Under the pieces are notes generated by a model. That model did no database searches. It saw only the letters and a list, made by a program, of their open reading frames with translations, and was not told the origin of the DNA. Shown piece after piece: positions 7,200-59,085 of a stretch of DNA of 59,851 nucleotides. Within the stretch, counting starts at the first letter, position 1. Each line of letters begins with the position of its first letter. Both the position numbers and the translations under genes were made by a program. The stretch covers positions 1 to 59,851 of the forward strand of contig CAZNSC010000002.1 of NCBI GenBank assembly GCA_964575695.1, written 5' to 3'. The DNA is from an uncultured Dehalococcoidales bacterium. GTDB lineage: Bacteria; Chloroflexota; Dehalococcoidia; Dehalococcoidales; W111.

Positions 7200-8369
7200 C
7201 TATGGCGAGACCAGCAACAGTAGTGGCTCTAGTGATAGGTCGGAGGCGGTCCTGAGCCCCAGGCTCTGCCGCCACAGGGCATCCAGACCATCCTGGTCAA
7301 AGCCATATACCTGCTGTAGCGCCTCGTCGTAGCCGCTTCCCTGGTGAAACACTGCCAGCAACTGGTTCATCTTGTCGCTGCCGTACTTCTGAATGAGAAA
7401 TGTCACGATGCTGTTGCTCTCGCCGTAGGATATTAAAGCCTCTTCAGGTACCGCCGAGAAAGGGCTGGAAAGGCTGCGGACGGAAATCAACTGATTGTTC
7501 TGTATCGCATAATTGAGCGCGGATGCATAGTCAGGGGATAGAGTGCCTTCACCGTAAGTTGCCAGGCCTTCGTCGAGCCACACGGGCAGGTCGGCGCCGT
7601 AGTTGTTGAAGGTTATCTGGTGCACAATCCAGTGCGTCAGCTCGTGAGGGACAGCCCGCTGACCGTAGGCTAAGTCGCTTGTGGCGACGCCAATAGCAAT
7701 AATATCATAGCCGGTGAAGGTGACGCCGCCTTCCCACTGTGGTGTGAAAAGCTGAGCGCCCTGCAAATCCTGAGCACTGGCATAAATATAGATGCGGACA
7801 TTCCCCTGAGGCACGGCACCCGTGTCATTCTCGATTCTCTGTAAGCCATCCTGAGCAGCGGCCATCAGCGCATCAGCGAAGGCACGGTCCCCCTTGTACC
7901 ACAGCAGCGTCACCGGGGCCATGGTGATGGACTGCCACTCATATCTGTCATCATCGAAAGAGACCGCGGCGCGGTCTGTCTCCCCGCTTTTGCCTGCCGC
8001 ATCCTCGGCTGTCCACCAGTATTCCACCTGAGCCCCGGGGGGCAGGCTGCTTTTTCTCATATCCCAGAGCCACTGTGTCTCTACCGACGGCGCCGGATTG
8101 AACTGCGGCCAGCCCTCGCTGACCACGCTGGCGAAATTCTGGCGGTCCACGATGTAGTGCAATCTGAGCTTAACTATGTTGGCGTCGCTCTGCGCTTTTA
8201 CCCCAAACGACATGGAGTTCGGAAACGAAATCTGGACCGAGCTGCTCAGGGTAATGCCGGATGCTGCTGACACCGGCAGGTGAAGGGCCAACGCAAGGGG
8301 AGCAATGGCCATTACTGCCAGCAGTGTACATACCAGGATTTTGCTCAACGGTGCCGTAAGTCGTTTCAT
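7200..8369 (-). CDS. Secreted zinc metallopeptidase, MA-clan (HExxH) family
   Basis: 389 aa. It has an N-terminal signal peptide and HELTHWIVH...WLDEGLATY (HExxH plus a downstream Glu). It is a close paralogue of 41828-43036. Confidence 0.75.
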   Translation of the reverse strand: MKRLTAPLSKILVCTLLAVMAIAPLALALHLPVSAASGITLSSSVQISFPNSMSFGVKAQSDANIVKLRLHYIVDRQNFASVVSEGWPQFNPAPSVETQWLWDMRKSSLPPGAQVEYWWTAEDAAGKSGETDRAAVSFDDDRYEWQSITMAPVTLLWYKGDRAFADALMAAAQDGLQRIENDTGAVPQGNVRIYIYASAQDLQGAQLFTPQWEGGVTFTGYDIIAIGVATSDLAYGQRAVPHELTHWIVHQITFNNYGADLPVWLDEGLATYGEGTLSPDYASALNYAIQNNQLISVRSLSSPFSAVPEEALISYGESNSIVTFLIQKYGSDKMNQLLAVFHQGSGYDEALQQVYGFDQDGLDALWRQSLGLRTASDLSLEPLLLLVSP

Positions 8370-30960: not shown

Positions 30961-31569
30961 CTAGGTTTGTTTGGTTCTTGTCTGTTGCCACACGCAAAGC
31001 AGCCGTTGAACCACAGTGACGAAGCTGAATACCGCTATGATAGCTAACGCTACGAGCAAGGCAGATTCAATAATCTGGTTCAGCCAGAGCCCTAGCACCA
31101 GCACCACCACCCGCTCTGCCCGGGTAAATAGCCCCACCTGGCATTCCAGCCCCAGTGCCTCTGCCCTGGCCCGGATATAGCTCACCAGCAGCGAGCCAAT
31201 CAGGGTAACCACGACCAGTAAAATCGGGACAAGTGATTGACTATCGGCATACAAGACCAGGATGCCGATGAGCAGCACCGCCTCGGATAAACGGTCAAGG
31301 GTAGAGTCCAGGACAGCCCCGAAGCGGGTTACTTGGTCGGTACGACGAGCCAGCGCTCCATCAACAATATCAAAGAAGCCGGCGATAAGCACGACAAACC
31401 CGGCGGCAACGAGGTTCCCCAAAGTAATCAGTATTGCTGCCCCAATAGCCAGCAGGAAACCGAACCAGGTTAATGTGCTGGGTGTCACCGGTGACCTTGC
31501 CAGAAGCCGCACCGGTGGTTCGGTAAGATAATAGGCAATCGTTTTACGGGCTCCAGCTAACTTTACCAT
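30961..31569 (-). CDS. CDP-alcohol phosphatidyltransferase (phosphatidylinositol-phosphate synthase-like)
   Basis: 202 aa, multi-TM. It has the motif DGALARRTDQVTRFGAVLDSTLDR (D-x2-DG-x2-AR...G-x3-D-x3-D). It sits beside an inositol-3-phosphate synthase gene. Confidence 0.8.
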   Translation of the reverse strand: MVKLAGARKTIAYYLTEPPVRLLARSPVTPSTLTWFGFLLAIGAAILITLGNLVAAGFVVLIAGFFDIVDGALARRTDQVTRFGAVLDSTLDRLSEAVLLIGILVLYADSQSLVPILLVVVTLIGSLLVSYIRARAEALGLECQVGLFTRAERVVVLVLGLWLNQIIESALLVALAIIAVFSFVTVVQRLLCVWQQTRTKQT

Positions 31570-31575
31570 TGACTG

Positions 31576-32784
31576 TTACTTCGTGGGCATCTTTGCTTGG
31601 ACTGAGGTTGATACTGCCTCAGATTGGAGGTATCGCTCTCGCCACGGGGGTTCGTTGAGCACCGTGACATAGTACCTTAGCACCTTTTGGGTAATTTGTT
31701 CCCAGCCGTACTCCAACGCTTTAGCTCTGCCCCGGGCCGCTATCTCCTGCCGCAGTGACTGGTCAGTCATCAGCGAGACGAGAGCCCGGGCTAGCGCCGT
31801 CTCATCCTTCGGGGGTACCAGCAGTCCGTCGACACCGTTGGTCACCACGCTGGCATAGCCCTCGATATTCGAGGCGATGACCGGCCTGCCTACAGCCATC
31901 GCCTCGAGCAAAACAATCCCGAAACTTTCCCGGCCTGTAGCCGGAGAACAGAAAATGTCGGCTGTCTTATAGTACCGTGGGAGTTCCTCATAGGGCACAT
32001 AGCCAATGAAAATAACATCGTCGAGGCGGTTCTGCCTGACTTGCTTCTCGTACTTGTGCCGCAGCATGGTGCCGGGGCCAACGATAATGAGTCGTGACCT
32101 GGGAACTTCCAGCCGAATTCGCTCATAAGCTTTGAGCAGGTAGTTCAAGCCTTTACGCTTCTCCAGGCGACCCACAAACAAGAGATTGAGTTTCCCGTCA
32201 CAGAATTGTTCAATTGGAGATACCTCCGGCGAAAAGTGCGTTAGGTCGACACCATTGGGGATAATACTATAACCGCCTGGAATATATTTGCTGACAAACT
32301 CCATAGCCGGTCTGGATACTGCAATTCTGCCGTTGAGCTTGAGCGCCCGCCTCTTCAGCAGCATAGGAGTAACCGGCCACCCGAAGTTATAACCGGGTCT
32401 ACCTTGACAAGCGTGAAAGGTACCAACACAGGCTGTATTTGAAAACCGGAGTACGGCAGTGCATAGCATGGGCACAAGGGGCTCGTGGAGGTGAATAATA
32501 TCAAAGTTCTCCTCGTCAAGAACGGCTTTTATTCTGGAGGCAAGCCTGACTGATATGGTAATCCGGGCAATAGAGCCATTAGATGGAACCGGTCGAGCTT
32601 TGCCGATAGGTATAAAGTGGTCGCCGAGATTATCGACTGCTTTCGATGCCGGAGCAATAATCTTAACCTCGTGACCCATCTTGGTTAAATAATAACTGAG
32701 TGCCGAGATATGATTGACGACACCACCGGGATAAGCGAAGTCATAAGGGGAAACTAATGCTATCTTCATTGACAGTCGACCCAT
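31576..32784 (-). CDS. GT4-family glycosyltransferase (PimA-like)
   Basis: 402 aa. The N-terminus is MKIALVSPYDFAYPGGV and the C-terminal GT1/GT4 motif is ESFGIVLLEAMAVGRPVIAS. The start could be 32784 or 32769. Confidence 0.8.
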   Translation of the reverse strand: MGRLSMKIALVSPYDFAYPGGVVNHISALSYYLTKMGHEVKIIAPASKAVDNLGDHFIPIGKARPVPSNGSIARITISVRLASRIKAVLDEENFDIIHLHEPLVPMLCTAVLRFSNTACVGTFHACQGRPGYNFGWPVTPMLLKRRALKLNGRIAVSRPAMEFVSKYIPGGYSIIPNGVDLTHFSPEVSPIEQFCDGKLNLLFVGRLEKRKGLNYLLKAYERIRLEVPRSRLIIVGPGTMLRHKYEKQVRQNRLDDVIFIGYVPYEELPRYYKTADIFCSPATGRESFGIVLLEAMAVGRPVIASNIEGYASVVTNGVDGLLVPPKDETALARALVSLMTDQSLRQEIAARGRAKALEYGWEQITQKVLRYYVTVLNEPPWRERYLQSEAVSTSVQAKMPTK

Positions 32785-32799
32785 ACCTGCCTTACGGTC

Positions 32800-33897
32800 T
32801 TATCCTGATGCCTCATCAACTGCTGGCTGACTGCTGGCAATAAACTCCTCCACCATTTTGCGGGCTTCATCATCGGTATATTGGACTGGCGGTGACTTCA
32901 TAAAGTAGGCCGATGGGGCTACCAGTGCCCCTTTTAACCCGCGGTCTAGAGCCAGTTTGCAGCACCGGATGGCATCAATAACCACCCCGGCTGAGTTGGG
33001 GCTATCCCACACCTCGAGTTTCAGCTCCAGGTTCAGGGGGACATCGCCAAAGGTGCGTCCCTCCATCTTAATATGACAGAACTTACGGTCCTGGAGCCAG
33101 GGAACATAATCGCTGGGCCCGACGTGGATGTTATCCGCATCAAGCTGGTAATCAAGCTGGGAGGTTACGGCGGTGGTTTTAGATACCTTCTTGGACTCAA
33201 GCCGTTCCCTCTCCAGCATATTGTAGAAGTCGGTGTTGCCACCAAAGTTCAGCTGATAGGTTCGTTCCAGCCTGACACCACGGTCTCTGAATAGCCGGGT
33301 AAGGATACGGTGGACAATAGTAGCCCCGACCTGAGATTTTATGTCATCACCGATAACCGGCAGTCCCCTTTGCTCAAAGCGCTCCTGCCAGTACTTCTCT
33401 CGAGCGATAAAAACCGGGATGCAGTTGATAAAGCCACAGCCTGCCGCCAGCACCTGCTCAATGTACCACTTGGTTGCTTCCTCACTACCCACTGGCAGGT
33501 AGTTAATCACGACATCGGTTTTAGCTTCCTTAAGCATTTTAACGATGTCTGCGGTTGATCCCGGTGCTTTCTGGATTATCTGTGACAGATACTTGCCTAG
33601 GCCGTCATGGGTCATCCCTCGCTGCACTTTGACCTTGGTCGCCGGCACATCACAAAATTTGAGGGTATTATTCGGCGGGGTAAAAATCGCCTCGGCCAGG
33701 TCTTTGCCGACCTTATTCTTGTCGATATCAACGGCGGCAACAAAATTGATATCACTGATATGATAGCCACCGAGATCGACGTGCATCAGTCCAGGCACAA
33801 ACTGAGTCGGGTCTGCCTTCTTATAATAGTGAACACCCTGAACCAGTGATGAGGCGCAATTACCGACTCCGATTATAGCCACATTTATCTTGCCCAC
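32800..33897 (-). CDS. ino1: myo-Inositol-3-phosphate synthase
   Basis: 365 aa. [21 protein letters not shown], the overall short bacterial/archaeal MIPS architecture and the SKKVSKT region support the call. The start is GTG with AAGGAG upstream. Confidence 0.85.
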
Positions 33898-40726: not shown

Positions 40727-41831
40727 ATGCAGGAGATAAGGGATAAACTGAAGGATTTAGAGGCTCGGGTCTCGATGGTACTGGTGCATCTTTGACATCG
40801 CTGCTAAAGAGGAGGAGATTGCTCGCCTGGAAAAACAGGCTGCTCAGCCCGATTTCTGGTCAGACCCAACCGGGGCACAGAATATTATGCGCCGGCTTGC
40901 GGAACAGAAGCGGGTGGTCGAGAGGTGGCGGGGACTGGAAAGTGAGGTTGCTGACATTGCTGAGTTTGTGTCCCTGGCCGAAGAAGAAGGGGACAGCTCA
41001 CTGGAAGGTGAGATTCAGTCTCGTTTAGAAAAGGTTACCGCTCGCCTTGATGACCTGGAGCTGGAGATGGCATTTACCAGTGAGTATGATGCCAGAAATG
41101 CCATCTTGGCGATTCATGCCGGGGCCGGGGGTACCGAATCGCAGGACTGGGCTCAGATGCTAATGAGGATGTACCTCCGCTGGGCGGAGCGGCGTGGTTA
41201 CCGGGCGGAAATTCTGGACATTTCTCCCGGTGAAGAGGCGGGGATAAAGAGCGCCGTCATCGGAGTTACCGGTGATTACGCCTGTGGCTACTTGAAATCG
41301 GAGCACGGCGTTCATCGCCTGGTTCGTCTCTCCCCCTTTGATGCCGACCATGCTCGGCACACCTCTTTCGCCCTGGTCGAGGTTATGCCAGAAGCGGAGG
41401 CGGATGTTGATGTGAAGATAGCCCCTGATGATTTGAGGGTGGATACCTTCAGGTCAAGCGGACCCGGGGGGCAGCATATGCAGAAGACAAGCACTGCCGT
41501 GAGACTTGTTCATCAACCAACGGGGCTGGTGGTAACCTGCCAGAGTGAGCGCTCGCAGCATCAGAACAAGGAGATTGCGCTGAGGATACTCCAGGCTCGG
41601 CTGCTGGATTTGGAGTTGGCGAAGCGGGCGGAAGAGACAGCGAGGCTCAAGGGCAAACACGTCTCTGCTGGCTGGGGTAACCAGATCAGGAGCTATGTCC
41701 TCCATCCGTATAAGATGGTCAAGGACCACAGGACGGATTATCAAACCAGCGATACTGATGCGATACTGGATGGAGACTTGGACGGCTTTATCACCGCCTA
41801 TCTCCGCTCTATTGTGGGTAAAGAAGGATGA
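40727..41831 (+). CDS. prfB: Peptide chain release factor 2, requiring a programmed +1 frameshift (40727-40792 joined to 40794-41831)
   Basis: Frame 0 reads MQEIRDKLKDLEARVSMVLVHL then TGA. The classic CTT TGA C site is present. The +1 frame continues DIAAKEEEIARLEKQAAQPDFWSDP... into the ORF-track protein, which carries SPF and GGQ motifs. Confidence 0.93.
40790..40796 (+). promoter_or_regulatory. RF2 autoregulatory +1 frameshift site (CTT TGA C)
   Basis: CTTTGAC at 40790-40796, with an SD-like GGTG 3 nt upstream. Confidence 0.85.
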
Positions 41832-43036
41832 TTAAGAAGGCGAGCCTGATAGCCCTAGTCCTTTGCCTGTTCCTGGTTATATCAAGCCCGGTTCAGGCTC
41901 AGGGTAAGCTGGAGGTATTGGCTAGCTCGGCTCAGGTAGAGTTTCCCGCCAGGCTCAGCTTCAGTTTATCCGCCCGGAGTGATGTCGATATCACTGATAT
42001 TCGCCTGCACTATATTGTTGACAGGATAAGCTTTGCTGAAGTTACCAGCGAAGTCTATGTTGATTTTGCGCCACAAACCATGGTTGACGTTGACTGGGCT
42101 CTGGAGATGATAAAAATCGGCGGCCTGCCCCCCGGCTCCGGTGTGGACTACTGGTGGGAGGTCACGGATGCCCGTGGCGATAAAGTGGAGACCGCCCCGG
42201 CCACAGTCCGGTTTAGTGACAATCGTTACCCGTGGCGCAGCTTAACCGAGGATGAGGTGACTATCTATTGGTATGACGGCGGGGATGGGTTTGCCCTGGA
42301 GCTGATGACCGCCGCTCAGCAGACGCTGGACAGGCTGGCGGCTGATACCGGTGCCCATCTGGAGAAGCCGGCGGTGATATACATCTATGCCAGAACTCAG
42401 GACTTAAGCGGGGCGTTGGTTCATCCCCAGGAGTGGACGGGAGGAGTCGCCTTCACAAGGTTTGGTGTCATCGCCATTGGTATTGCCCCAGCCAGCCTCG
42501 CCTGGGGGAAGACGGCAATTGCCCATGAGCTGGCCCACCTGGTCATCCACCAGATGACGCTTAACCCCTATAGCGACCTGCCCACCTGGCTTGACGAGGG
42601 CCTGGCCATGTATGCTGAGGGAATACAGGGGCCAGAATATGCCAGCCGTCTGTCCAGGGCGGTCACCGAAGGCAGGCTCATCTCGGTGCGTAGCCTGTCG
42701 AGCCCCTTCTCGGCTTATACCGAGGAGGCGATCCTTTCCTATGCTGAGAGTTATAGTCTGGTTGAATTTCTTATTAGCAAATACGGGCAGGCGGAGATGC
42801 TTGAGCTGCTCAGTACCTTCAGGCAGGGTAGCAGCTATGATGAGGCCCTGGAAAAGGTGTTTGGCTTTGATATGGATGGTCTGAATACTGTGTGGCAGGA
42901 TTATGTTGCTGAGCAGTATCAGCCGGCTGTTGAAGAGAAGGGGGTGCAGCCGGCATTAGTCTGGGCACTGGTGGCGCTGGGGGTAGTCGTCCTTTTCGGT
43001 CTGGGGCTGGCCATCAAATATGGGGTCCGGAGCTGA
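41828..43036 (+). CDS. Zinc metallopeptidase, MA-clan (HExxH) family, with a C-terminal TM anchor; paralogue of 7200-8369
   Basis: 402 aa. It contains HELAHLVIH...WLDEGLAMY. The ATG overlaps the prfB stop (ATGA). Confidence 0.75.
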   Translation: MIKKASLIALVLCLFLVISSPVQAQGKLEVLASSAQVEFPARLSFSLSARSDVDITDIRLHYIVDRISFAEVTSEVYVDFAPQTMVDVDWALEMIKIGGLPPGSGVDYWWEVTDARGDKVETAPATVRFSDNRYPWRSLTEDEVTIYWYDGGDGFALELMTAAQQTLDRLAADTGAHLEKPAVIYIYARTQDLSGALVHPQEWTGGVAFTRFGVIAIGIAPASLAWGKTAIAHELAHLVIHQMTLNPYSDLPTWLDEGLAMYAEGIQGPEYASRLSRAVTEGRLISVRSLSSPFSAYTEEAILSYAESYSLVEFLISKYGQAEMLELLSTFRQGSSYDEALEKVFGFDMDGLNTVWQDYVAEQYQPAVEEKGVQPALVWALVALGVVVLFGLGLAIKYGVRS

Positions 43037-57689: not shown

Positions 57690-57749
57690 TTTACAACAGT
57701 GCTTCCCCGCATCTCCTTCGAAGGTGAGGTGGGGAAGCACTGTTGTAAA
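57690..57749. repeat. 60-nt hairpin with a perfect 19-bp outer stem (TTTACAACAGTGCTTCCCC / GGGGAAGCACTGTTGTAAA) and a further imperfectly paired interior around TTCGAA
   Basis: Read directly. It lies 24 nt downstream of the tubulin-like gene stop and upstream of the dnaX promoter. No U-tract follows it. Confidence 0.8.
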
Positions 57750-57773: not shown

Positions 57774-58949
57774 TTATAGTAGTGAGGGTATATCCTTCGC
57801 TGCCTCGTCTATTCCCCTGAGTTTGGTCTCGGCGGCCTCCTGCTTCTTTGAAACCTGACCGATAAAGGCAGTCGAATCATCATAGTATTTTCTCACTTTT
57901 TCCACGTCACTGAGGTCTGACAGGATTACGGTGACATCCAGCACCCCCCTTTCTCTGGGGTAATCACCGTTCCTTATAATCGCCTCCGGCGCGATGTCTC
58001 TGAGATACTCTCCGAGCTCCTTAACCACGTCCATGTTCATCTCCTTGTGGGGGGCGGCGAGCAGGTACAGGGCTCGGCCGGCATCGGCTGGGTTACACCG
58101 AAGTGATAGCTCACTCAGGGCTTCGTCCATGGCGTGGATTCCCTTATGGGTTTCGGTGCTCTTCTTCCTGAAACTGCGGGTCCGCTCGAATGGGAGTCTG
58201 ATCAGCGGCAGTTGCGATTTACCATAGCCGATCACTGTCCAGCCAGATATGGTCTGGATTATGTCTCCGGCATCAAGAATCTTGGCCCCGATGTGTTTGG
58301 GTTTTTTCTCTTCACCGGCACAGAGTATGTTGTAGAACGGCTCAGCGATCAGGGCATTAATCTTGGCGATGTTGTTTCTGAGTGAGAAGTCTTTTCTAAC
58401 ATACCGCTGATTATCAACCAGAAATACGGCATCGGCCACTGAGCTTGCCGATTTGAGGCACACCGCTGTATTATAAACTGTCCTCTCCTCGGTCGACTCC
58501 TCATGCTCAAAGGGGAGAACCACAAGGTTGTAGATCGGTTTGTCCCCGTAGCGGTCTCTTAGGTGCTGCGTTATTATTGGTAGGCTTCCCGAGCCAGTGC
58601 CTCCAGCAGCCCCGCAGGCAAGCAAGAAGGCGTCTGACTCATAGAAGCGCCGGGTGGTTCTTATGGCATCAACAATCTTGTCGGCATCTTCCCGAGCGAT
58701 CTCAGCCCCCAGCTCATTTATCTTACCCACGCCGTGACCGCCCGTCTTCCGCCCCCCGATGAGCACCCGGTGCTGGTAATCAGACTGTATTGCCTGTAGT
58801 CCGCTTAAATCAGCGGCGTCTGTGTTTACGGCAAAGCAACCGGTGGTTATCTCAATCCCACGGTGACTCCGTGCCCTTCTATTCAGGCGAGCAAACTCAT
58901 CGGCGATTCGACCGCCGCATTGCCCAAAGCCAATAACTACTAACTTCAT
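57774..58949 (-). CDS. Tubulin/FtsZ-superfamily GTPase, CetZ-like (not canonical FtsZ)
   Basis: 391 aa. The T1 loop is GFGQCGG (the tubulin/CetZ-type GQxG rather than the FtsZ GGGG). It also has GHGVGKINELGAEIAREDADKI, the T4 signature GGTGSGS, a T6 VDNQ motif, and a T7-like LDAGDIIQTISGWTVIGYG. Confidence 0.8.
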   Translation of the reverse strand: MKLVVIGFGQCGGRIADEFARLNRRARSHRGIEITTGCFAVNTDAADLSGLQAIQSDYQHRVLIGGRKTGGHGVGKINELGAEIAREDADKIVDAIRTTRRFYESDAFLLACGAAGGTGSGSLPIITQHLRDRYGDKPIYNLVVLPFEHEESTEERTVYNTAVCLKSASSVADAVFLVDNQRYVRKDFSLRNNIAKINALIAEPFYNILCAGEEKKPKHIGAKILDAGDIIQTISGWTVIGYGKSQLPLIRLPFERTRSFRKKSTETHKGIHAMDEALSELSLRCNPADAGRALYLLAAPHKEMNMDVVKELGEYLRDIAPEAIIRNGDYPRERGVLDVTVILSDLSDVEKVRKYYDDSTAFIGQVSKKQEAAETKLRGIDEAAKDIPSLL

Positions 58950-59085
58950 TTCACCGCCTCCCTAATTTGATGATGTTGGATGTCGCTATTTTAAGCACAC
59001 TAAGATGAGGATGTCAATACTTCACATTGATTCATTTGCCGCCCCGCTTAGCTGAAGGCTATAATAAGACCAAGGAGGGAATGGA

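Follow-up and report, generated by a model that had tools for sequence, protein, structure and literature searches.

Why does a bacterial chromosome carry a gene for a cytoskeletal protein of the CetZ family, which reviews call archaea-specific (PMC9856176)? The question is raised by contig CAZNSC010000002.1 of an uncultured Dehalococcoidales bacterium (assembly GCA_964575695.1), of which a stretch of 59,851 nucleotides, here called the window, was analysed. An open reading frame (ORF) of 391 codons, running from an ATG to a TAA stop, occupies positions 57774..58949, and an earlier note on this DNA had described its product as a CetZ/tubulin-like protein in a bacterial chromosome. The ORF list and the translation place the gene on the minus strand, which the note had not given, and the description itself was borne out by Pfam, TIGR00065, the PDB, Foldseek, a neighbour-joining (NJ) tree and a 23S rRNA gene on the contig of a relative. 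It is near certain that the protein is a CetZ-like member of the tubulin/FtsZ superfamily, and such proteins would, by analogy, serve their bacterial hosts as a shape cytoskeleton. The parts of the coding sequence are as follows.

57774..58949, minus strand: cetZ-like coding sequence, assigned from the ORF, the Pfam Tubulin and CetZ_C matches, orthologues with 62-92% identity, and a ratio of nonsynonymous to synonymous substitution rates (dN/dS) of 0.08-0.12.
58404..58943, minus strand: N-terminal GTP-binding domain, residues 3-182 (PF00091, E 7.3e-32).
58911-58931, minus strand: T1 motif GFGQCGG, residues 7-13, read in the translation.
58584-58604, minus strand: T4 motif GGTGSGS, residues 116-122, read in the translation.
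57882..58385, minus strand: CetZ-type C-terminal (activation) domain, residues 189-356 (PF21011, CetZ_C).
58263-58274, minus strand: T7 loop D226-A-G-D229, from the alignment to CetZ1.
57798..57902, minus strand: long, sequence-variable C-terminal helix or linker, residues 350-384, from the helix of an AlphaFold2 model and the alignment columns.
57777..57797, minus strand: C-terminal peptide K-D-I-P-S-L-L, residues 385-391, a predicted docking motif, from its conservation in relatives.

The family assignment is carried by domains, sequence rankings and fold. The N-terminal domain matched Pfam Tubulin, and the C-terminal half matched CetZ_C with 59.0 bits against a gathering score of 21.6 (E 5e-16, profile positions 3-175 of 180); no FtsZ C-terminal-domain family was found in the Pfam scan of this half. 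When the protein was compared with the PDB sequences by phmmer, the best match was Haloferax volcanii CetZ1 (4b46, E 5.9e-43), aligned over the full length, followed by CetZ2 (4b45, E 1.2e-28) and the Methanosaeta thermophila CetZ (3zid, E 7e-14), and lower down by FtsZs (E ~1e-10) and by tubulins and BtubA/B (E ~1e-6, best tubulins ~5e-7). Chance cannot account for domain and sequence matches of this strength. The AlphaFold2 model, built from a 50-sequence alignment, reached a predicted local distance difference test score (pLDDT) of 91 and a predicted template-modelling score of 0.88. Searched against the PDB with Foldseek, it ranked 4b46, 4b45 and 3zid first to third (template-modelling score on target length 0.91, 0.93 and 0.81), with all FtsZ structures below the CetZ ones (0.73-0.87), so that the structure comparison proposed in the earlier note came out in favour of CetZ. 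The protein thus has the GTPase domain with its G-box and the acidic T7 residue, predicted to be catalytic, that mark the tubulin/FtsZ superfamily, and the CetZ_C domain and the greater nearness to solved CetZ than to FtsZ or tubulin that mark the CetZ family.

The motifs GFGQCGG, GGTGSGS, DN and DAGD, which the note had picked out, are all where it had read them, with DN at residues 179-180 in the T6 region VDNQ. The stretches that it had likened to archaeal CetZ align column for column with Haloferax CetZ1: GHGVGKINELGAEIAREDADKI of the window protein pairs residue by residue with GHGVGADNELGAEIAEEDIDEV, and RALYLLAAPHKEMN...GDYP with RALLVLAGPPEHLN...GGDYP. At T1 the window protein has GQCGG, with a tubulin-like Cys, where CetZ1 and CetZ2 have GQAGGK, and at T7 it has LDAGDI where they have VVDSSEI. 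The hidden Markov model (HMM), PDB-sequence and fold rankings all favour CetZ. The protein is thus a CetZ-like one, not an FtsZ, and its departures at T1 and T7 are real, not the artefacts of alignment that the note had allowed for. Among 50 diverse relatives, down to 25% identity, G116, G119, P146, N160 and N198 are invariant. D226 and D229 align with D215 and E218 of CetZ1 and with NVDFAD of E. coli FtsZ, and are conserved across the clade described below; the E218A change makes CetZ1 a GTPase-dead mutant with hyperstable filaments (PMC13556191). Given these invariant residues, the GTP-binding glycines among them, and the place of D229 at the E218 position, a polymerising GTPase is the expected activity of the window protein. 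A basic M-loop, FRKKSTETHKGI at residues 260-271, is conserved and predicted to be disordered (pLDDT ~51).

Automatic annotations of FtsZ and a weak similarity to FtsZ (E ~1e-10) might suggest that the protein is a divergent canonical FtsZ. The two share the superfamily and, with template-modelling scores on target length of 0.81-0.86, the fold; they also have in common a GGGTGSG-type T4, a D-x-x-D T7 and a D-I-P-x-hydrophobic-L peptide on a flexible linker. However, the FtsZ equivalog model TIGR00065 (NCBIfam) gave 63.9 bits against a cutoff of 295.2, and over the N-terminal domain only; the C-terminal half is CetZ_C; CetZ structures outranked every FtsZ in both the sequence and the fold search; and the protein clusters with CetZ-like sequences when E. 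coli FtsZ is the outgroup. The gene also stands apart from ftsA and from the dcw (division and cell wall) genes, and the order is reported to have a canonical FtsZ besides. We consider this explanation refuted by the profile and structure scores and give it practically no chance.

Comparison with solved members of the family shows where the protein agrees with them and where it departs. With CetZ1 and CetZ2 it shares the Tubulin GTPase plus CetZ_C architecture and the best sequence and fold matches, the acidic T7 residue at the E218 position, the M-loop insertion and a tail ending in an acidic-hydrophobic peptide; relatives carry multiple paralogues per genome, as do the hosts of CetZ1 and CetZ2, and in both cases the literature describes an S-layer and no peptidoglycan. 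The identity to CetZ1 and CetZ2 is however only ~29-35%, the host is bacterial, and the clade is separate and well supported. The non-canonical Methanosaeta CetZ (3zid) and the Nitrososphaerales and Bathyarchaeia groups resemble it in their QCG-type T1 (GVGQCGNR), VLPF..EE and LVDNQ, but they are archaeal and none falls inside the Dehalococcoidia clade in NJ trees. TubZ, PhuZ and BtubA/B are likewise tubulin-superfamily proteins other than FtsZ in bacteria, but the similarity to them is far lower (for tubulins and BtubA/B over the N-terminal domain only), and the window gene is single-copy, chromosomal and vertically inherited, with neither TubR-type partners nor plasmid or phage copies.

Is the host really a bacterium? 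The family is otherwise archaeal, and all 32 plasmid matches were to haloarchaeal megaplasmids, which would fit an archaeal contaminant, a chimeric contig or a fresh acquisition from an archaeon. The neighbouring genes, which the earlier note had called unmistakably bacterial, do not bear this out. Its 3' neighbours, read from the same strand, are dnaX (690 bits), recR, a DNA methyltransferase gene, recO, lysS and serS; on the 5' side is a divergently transcribed TIGR03960 radical SAM gene; and elsewhere in the window are Lgt, PNPase, DapA/B, IF-2, NusA, TruB, RF2 and bacterial tRNAs. In locus L075, where the protein is 84% identical and the gene order is that of the window, the contig also holds a complete bacterial 23S rRNA gene (L075:1312-4298, minus strand, 2786 bits) ~6 kb 5' of the cetZ-like gene. 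The GC content of the gene (0.531), its third-codon-position GC (0.60) and its codon usage are inside the range of the neighbouring genes; the synteny recurs in dozens of independent assemblies, including complete chromosomes; and the nearest archaeal relatives are just 34-36% identical. Contamination and recent transfer are excluded, the latter on composition, and the notion of an artefact or a very recent foreign insertion, refuted by flanks, composition and synteny, deserves as little credit as that of a divergent FtsZ. The dN/dS, measured against five orthologues, shows strong purifying selection, and the gene is chromosomal and vertically inherited. As to mobile carriage, no phage matches were found, IMG/VR gave only weak matches to the N-terminal domain (24-31% identity), and no bacterial plasmid carries a relative.

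Neither a second tubulin homologue nor a canonical FtsZ was found in the window by phmmer over six-frame ORFs or by tblastn with E. coli FtsZ, and the FtsZ query matched CetZ-like ORFs alone, weakly (<=43 bits), in the window and the fetched flanks. There is no ftsA, ftsZ or dcw context in the window, where the order is radical SAM gene, cetZ-like gene, dnaX-ybaB-recR, and across the fetched flanks of 70+ loci the cetZ-like gene never adjoins ftsA or ftsZ.

How widespread the gene is was asked with a pattern-seeded scan of one genome per GTDB species. At least 64 species-level genomes have a copy, 62-82% identical to the window protein, and nearly all are titled as metagenome-assembled genomes (MAGs) of Dehalococcoidales or Dehalococcoidia; 64 is a lower bound because the scan finds only sequences sharing exact peptides with the query. 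Two of these genomes, CP070810.1 and CP070693.1, are complete MAG chromosomes of 1.0-1.1 Mb. The gene is immediately 5' of dnaX in 46/64, and most of the other contigs are too short to judge. Taxonomy was taken from record titles, some of which are evidently mislabelled: L007, L012, L025, L051, L052, L054 and L058 are titled Deltaproteobacteria, Acidobacteriaceae or Chloroflexia, and they are probably mislabelled or misbinned because they show Dehalococcoidales-type cetZ-like-dnaX-recR synteny and a DnaX 50-68% identical. The earlier note had expected such proteins to be rare and lineage-restricted; the restriction stands, but within the lineage they are common. An exhaustive search of 1.84 billion cluster representatives returned 1281 relatives, 79 of them at E<=1e-30.

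NJ trees (100 bootstraps, E. coli FtsZ as outgroup) placed the window protein, all Dehalococcoidales copies and a group of 417-424-aa proteins in one clade with 93-95% support. Members of the longer group are named 'SAR202 cluster bacterium', 'Dehalococcoidia bacterium' or 'Chloroflexi bacterium', and all clade members that bear a name are Dehalococcoidia, SAR202 or Chloroflexi. These trees were built from distances, with partial reference sequences: CetZ1, CetZ2 and 3zid as aligned to the PDB, and haloarchaeal plasmid CetZs with names. For tubulin, TubZ and FtsZl, which stood outside the trees, the exclusion rests on HMM and PDB scores. The Nitrososphaerales, Bathyarchaeia and haloarchaeal CetZ1 and CetZ2 groups all lie outside the clade, with Nitrososphaerales proteins as the top-scoring non-bacterial relatives (34-36% identity, ~172 bits). 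The window protein differs from the CetZ family as usually drawn in its bacterial host and, on this NJ topology with its weak backbone, in belonging to a separate clade outside the CetZ1/CetZ2 groups and not to the canonical CetZ node (sensu Duggin 2015, Santana-Molina 2023).

Support for the tree backbone was 19-37%, and therefore neither the sister group nor the direction of transfer is fixed by the tree. The wide range of the family in Archaea and its narrow one in Bacteria make an archaeal origin of the Dehalococcoidia gene plausible, and any transfer is ancient, given the native composition, the synteny in 46/64 genomes and the dN/dS of ~0.1. Of the horizontal, possibly archaeal origin suggested in the earlier note, plausibility from distribution is what stands; the direction is not given by the tree. 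A second CetZ-like protein of Chloroflexota, P0201 (378 aa; entries P0201 / P0195), is far more divergent and pairs with one from Bathyarchaeia outside the main clade, which hints at more than one inter-domain transfer.

The existence of these proteins was already on record, because Santana-Molina et al. 2023 gave one sentence to bacterial CetZ-like sequences from Chloroflexota-Dehalococcoidia, matched by a CetZ C-terminal HMM at ~1e-10 and called sparse and paraphyletic (PMC9871819). Those sequences are almost certainly the same proteins. In contrast to 'sparse, paraphyletic', the main group found here covers at least 64 species, forms a monophyletic group in NJ trees (93-95% support), keeps synteny with dnaX, and has several paralogues as well as linked partner genes. 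The novelty of the clade is thus lower than the earlier note had assumed, although the record is one sentence; the clade is briefly noted and otherwise uncharacterised. In the literature found, its restriction to lineages reported without peptidoglycan, its paralogue and partner modules and its conserved tail are not described, and nothing combined CetZ with SAR202.

Does the gene stand alone, as the earlier note had it? At the window locus and in L075 none of the paralogue, coiled-coil or membrane partner genes described below is nearby. Many relatives have them, and so 'stand-alone' holds for the window locus, not for the family. One arrangement, here called type B, was seen at 18/46 loci having enough upstream DNA. 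Here another close CetZ-like paralogue of 391 aa, which likewise ends in KDIPSLL, lies ~3 kb 5' of the main copy, and between it and the dnaX-adjacent copy are two oppositely oriented genes for coiled-coil proteins. The smaller protein has 170-180 aa; the larger has 460-756 aa, contains a 25-residue repeat and is 24% Ala and 18% Glu. No transmembrane segment was found in the larger coiled-coil and no Pfam match in either. With the 170-aa coiled-coil as homologue query 9 matches were returned, by a k-mer prefilter that performs poorly on low-complexity coiled coils. Besides L023, type B was seen in L003, L005, L020, L022, L024, L027, L035-L038, L041, L049-L051, L054 and L056. In type C, at 4 loci, a divergent paralogue (~43% identical) is in tandem 62-68 bp 5' of the main copy. 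In SAR202, a conserved bitopic membrane protein of ~290 aa is encoded directly 3' of the cetZ-like gene on the same strand, in two otherwise unrelated neighbourhoods; it has one transmembrane segment, a Pro/Ala-rich linker and a ~180-aa outer domain, and the two copies are 34% identical.

L023:3447-9173: type B four-gene module (paralogue, two coiled-coils, dnaX-adjacent copy).
L019:6761-7939: type C paralogue, T1 GQCGCN, tail ELPTLD; also in L012, L025 and L053.
L070:9374-10246 and L072:9320-10180: SAR202 bitopic membrane protein.
L074:1445-3789: insertion between the cetZ-like gene and dnaX.

One MAG also has an extra CetZ-like ORF 3' of the main copy (L058:9474-10490), which is C-terminally truncated to 338 aa. 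The insertion in L074, the closest relative (protein 92% identical), holds a DUF4382 gene, an extracytoplasmic function (ECF) sigma factor gene and a small ORF, indicating that the cetZ-like gene and dnaX are not obligatorily adjacent.

The place of the gene immediately 5' of dnaX, followed by ybaB and recR, in 46/64 Dehalococcoidales genomes might instead point to a filament that acts on DNA, organising or segregating the nucleoid in a TubZ-like manner. We find this very improbable. No small DNA-binding partner gene adjoins the cetZ-like gene in the window, and there is no TubR-like or centromere partner, in agreement with the earlier note, which had seen no tubZ-type partition partners; SAR202 orthologues are without the dnaX linkage; three unrelated genes separate the two in L074; and plasmid or phage relatives do not go beyond the haloarchaeal megaplasmids. 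The gene moreover has a promoter-like site of its own, ~40 nt 5' of the ATG, and a strong hairpin lies between it and dnaX (-41 kcal/mol, z-score -6.1 versus shuffles).

58988..59017, minus strand: sigma-70-like promoter candidate TTGACA-18 nt-TAAAAT, 11/12 matches to the consensus, on which alone it was called.
58957..58962, minus strand: ribosome-binding site GGGAGG, 7 nt 5' of the ATG, read from the sequence.
57691..57748, minus strand: stem-loop between the cetZ-like stop codon and dnaX, with an 18-bp stem and without a U tract, found by folding.

The stem-loop is a putative terminator, RNA processing site or protein-binding site. The possibility that it is a dispersed repeat was rejected, as its arms are unique within the window.

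What, then, might such a filament hold on to? The FtsZ C-terminal peptide binds FtsA, ZipA and SepF. In the CetZ-like proteins the tail K-D-[IL]-P-[ST]-L-[LF] is found in nearly all of 60 complete main copies and in 16/16 close extra copies, and the SAR202 tails are ..MLPNL or ..DVPLL; the counterpart in E. coli FtsZ is LDIPAFL. Representative archaeal CetZs end in KDIESLL, SDIDSLF or DELDSLF, and a Bathyarchaeia protein in SKDIPPLL. Because many archaeal CetZs end alike, the peptide is predicted to be an ancestral docking-type motif of the family and not one borrowed from FtsZ; for the same reason the idea of an FtsZ-derived chimeric tail was rejected.

The literature on the hosts gives a setting for a tethered filament. 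D. mccartyi is without peptidoglycan and bears an S-layer like that of archaea; a common ancestor of Dehalococcoidales and SAR202 lost the dcw genes, and mraZ-mraW-ftsA-ftsZ were kept in all high-quality genomes examined (Wiegand et al. 2023, PMC10608941). The lineages reported without peptidoglycan are the same two that form the CetZ-like clade. Besides FtsZ (btf_0595), D. mccartyi BTF08 was found to make a distinct 'FtsZ/Tubulin GTPase' (btf_0551), and btf_0551 and a nearby hypothetical protein were abundant in pure cultures, whose cells are discs, but not in co-culture, where the cells are barrel-shaped (Kruse et al. 2021, PMC8163811). In Haloferax, CetZ1 and CetZ2 serve shape control and motility (PMC13556191).

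On balance, if with some caution, we favour the view that the window protein forms a GTP-driven, dynamic filament of CetZ type, tethered at its C-terminus, which acts as a shape or envelope cytoskeleton in wall-less S-layer bacteria that keep FtsZ and FtsA for division. The protein would bind GTP through its intact T1-T6 loops and polymerise head to tail into protofilaments, and the T7 loop of one subunit (D226, D229) would complete the GTPase site of the next and so make the filaments dynamic. KDIPSLL, at the end of the long variable helix, may tether the filaments to an adaptor or membrane anchor, for which FtsA, SepF and the lineage-specific coiled-coil or bitopic membrane proteins beside paralogues in relatives are candidates. 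By analogy with Haloferax CetZ1 and CetZ2, the filaments would form a cytoskeleton outside division that shapes or remodels the envelope, an envelope which according to the literature has no peptidoglycan wall and an archaeal-like S-layer, with division left to canonical FtsZ and FtsA.

The most serious competitor is an accessory role in division, as a second FtsZ-like polymer co-assembling with or scaffolding the FtsZ/FtsA ring of wall-less Dehalococcoidia, comparable to archaeal FtsZ1/FtsZ2. The D-I-P-x-L-L tail is like the FtsZ C-terminal peptide, FtsA is kept in the order (PMC10608941), a Joint Genome Institute (JGI) annotation reads 'cell division GTPase FtsZ', and the tubulin-like protein and FtsZ went down together in D. 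mccartyi cells with abnormal septa (PMC8163811). We nevertheless judge this role unlikely, as CetZ1 and CetZ2, the closest of its relatives to have been characterised, work in shape and motility (PMC13556191), the order reportedly keeps a canonical FtsZ, archaeal CetZs share the tail type, which is therefore not specific to FtsZ, and the gene is never beside ftsA or ftsZ in 70+ loci.

Several points weigh against the shape-cytoskeleton view. The window locus has no partner genes. The link to peptidoglycan-less lineages comes from the names of matches and not from a systematic presence/absence survey, and the retention of ftsZ and ftsA and the state of the peptidoglycan and mreB genes are taken from order-level literature, not from the window's own genome. 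The D. mccartyi protein btf_0551 may not be an orthologue of the window protein, and the correlation with cell shape fits a division role equally well, because FtsZ fell in parallel (PMC8163811). The resemblance of the C-terminal peptide to that of FtsZ could also point to the divisome.

The shape-cytoskeleton view can be carried further, to a scenario that we put forward tentatively and regard as rather doubtful. The ancestor of the peptidoglycan-less Dehalococcoidia might have taken a CetZ gene from archaea near the time of wall loss and S-layer adoption, paralogues and lineage-specific partners (the 25-residue-repeat coiled-coils; the SAR202 bitopic protein) would dock via D-I-P-x-L-L, and the whole would be the main shape system replacing MreB and peptidoglycan.

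Three further observations were made elsewhere in the window. At 40887-41831 (plus strand), the Pfam PCRF match of RF2 starts at profile position 29, and the absence of the N-terminus from the ORF is consistent with a programmed +1 frameshift, the RF2 frameshift that the earlier note had mentioned. At 30961-33897 (minus strand), genes for a cytidine diphosphate (CDP)-alcohol phosphatidyltransferase, a GT4/GT1 glycosyltransferase and a myo-inositol-1-phosphate synthase form a cluster that suggests inositol phospholipid or glycolipid synthesis, which is more familiar as a trait of archaea and actinobacteria. A pair of Peptidase_MA_2 paralogues is encoded at 7200-8369 (minus strand, E 2e-72) and 41828-43036 (plus strand, E 3e-82), the latter directly after RF2.

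The field regards CetZ proteins as shape regulators peculiar to archaea, and here a conserved, strongly constrained, multi-paralogue clade of CetZ-like proteins is found in Dehalococcoidia. SAR202 bacteria are abundant in the ocean, and Dehalococcoides, of the Dehalococcoidales, is a bioremediation organism. The lineage restriction, the partner modules and the conserved tail together make a specific, testable hypothesis, and the coiled-coil and membrane partner genes with the tail supply candidate interaction partners, the first for any member of the CetZ family. The finding suggests that bacteria that traded peptidoglycan for an S-layer of archaeal character have an archaeal-type cytoskeleton at work as well. 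If true, this would explain in concrete and testable terms how wall-less Dehalococcoidia come by their disc shape, and would provide a natural experiment on the co-evolution of cytoskeleton and envelope across domains.

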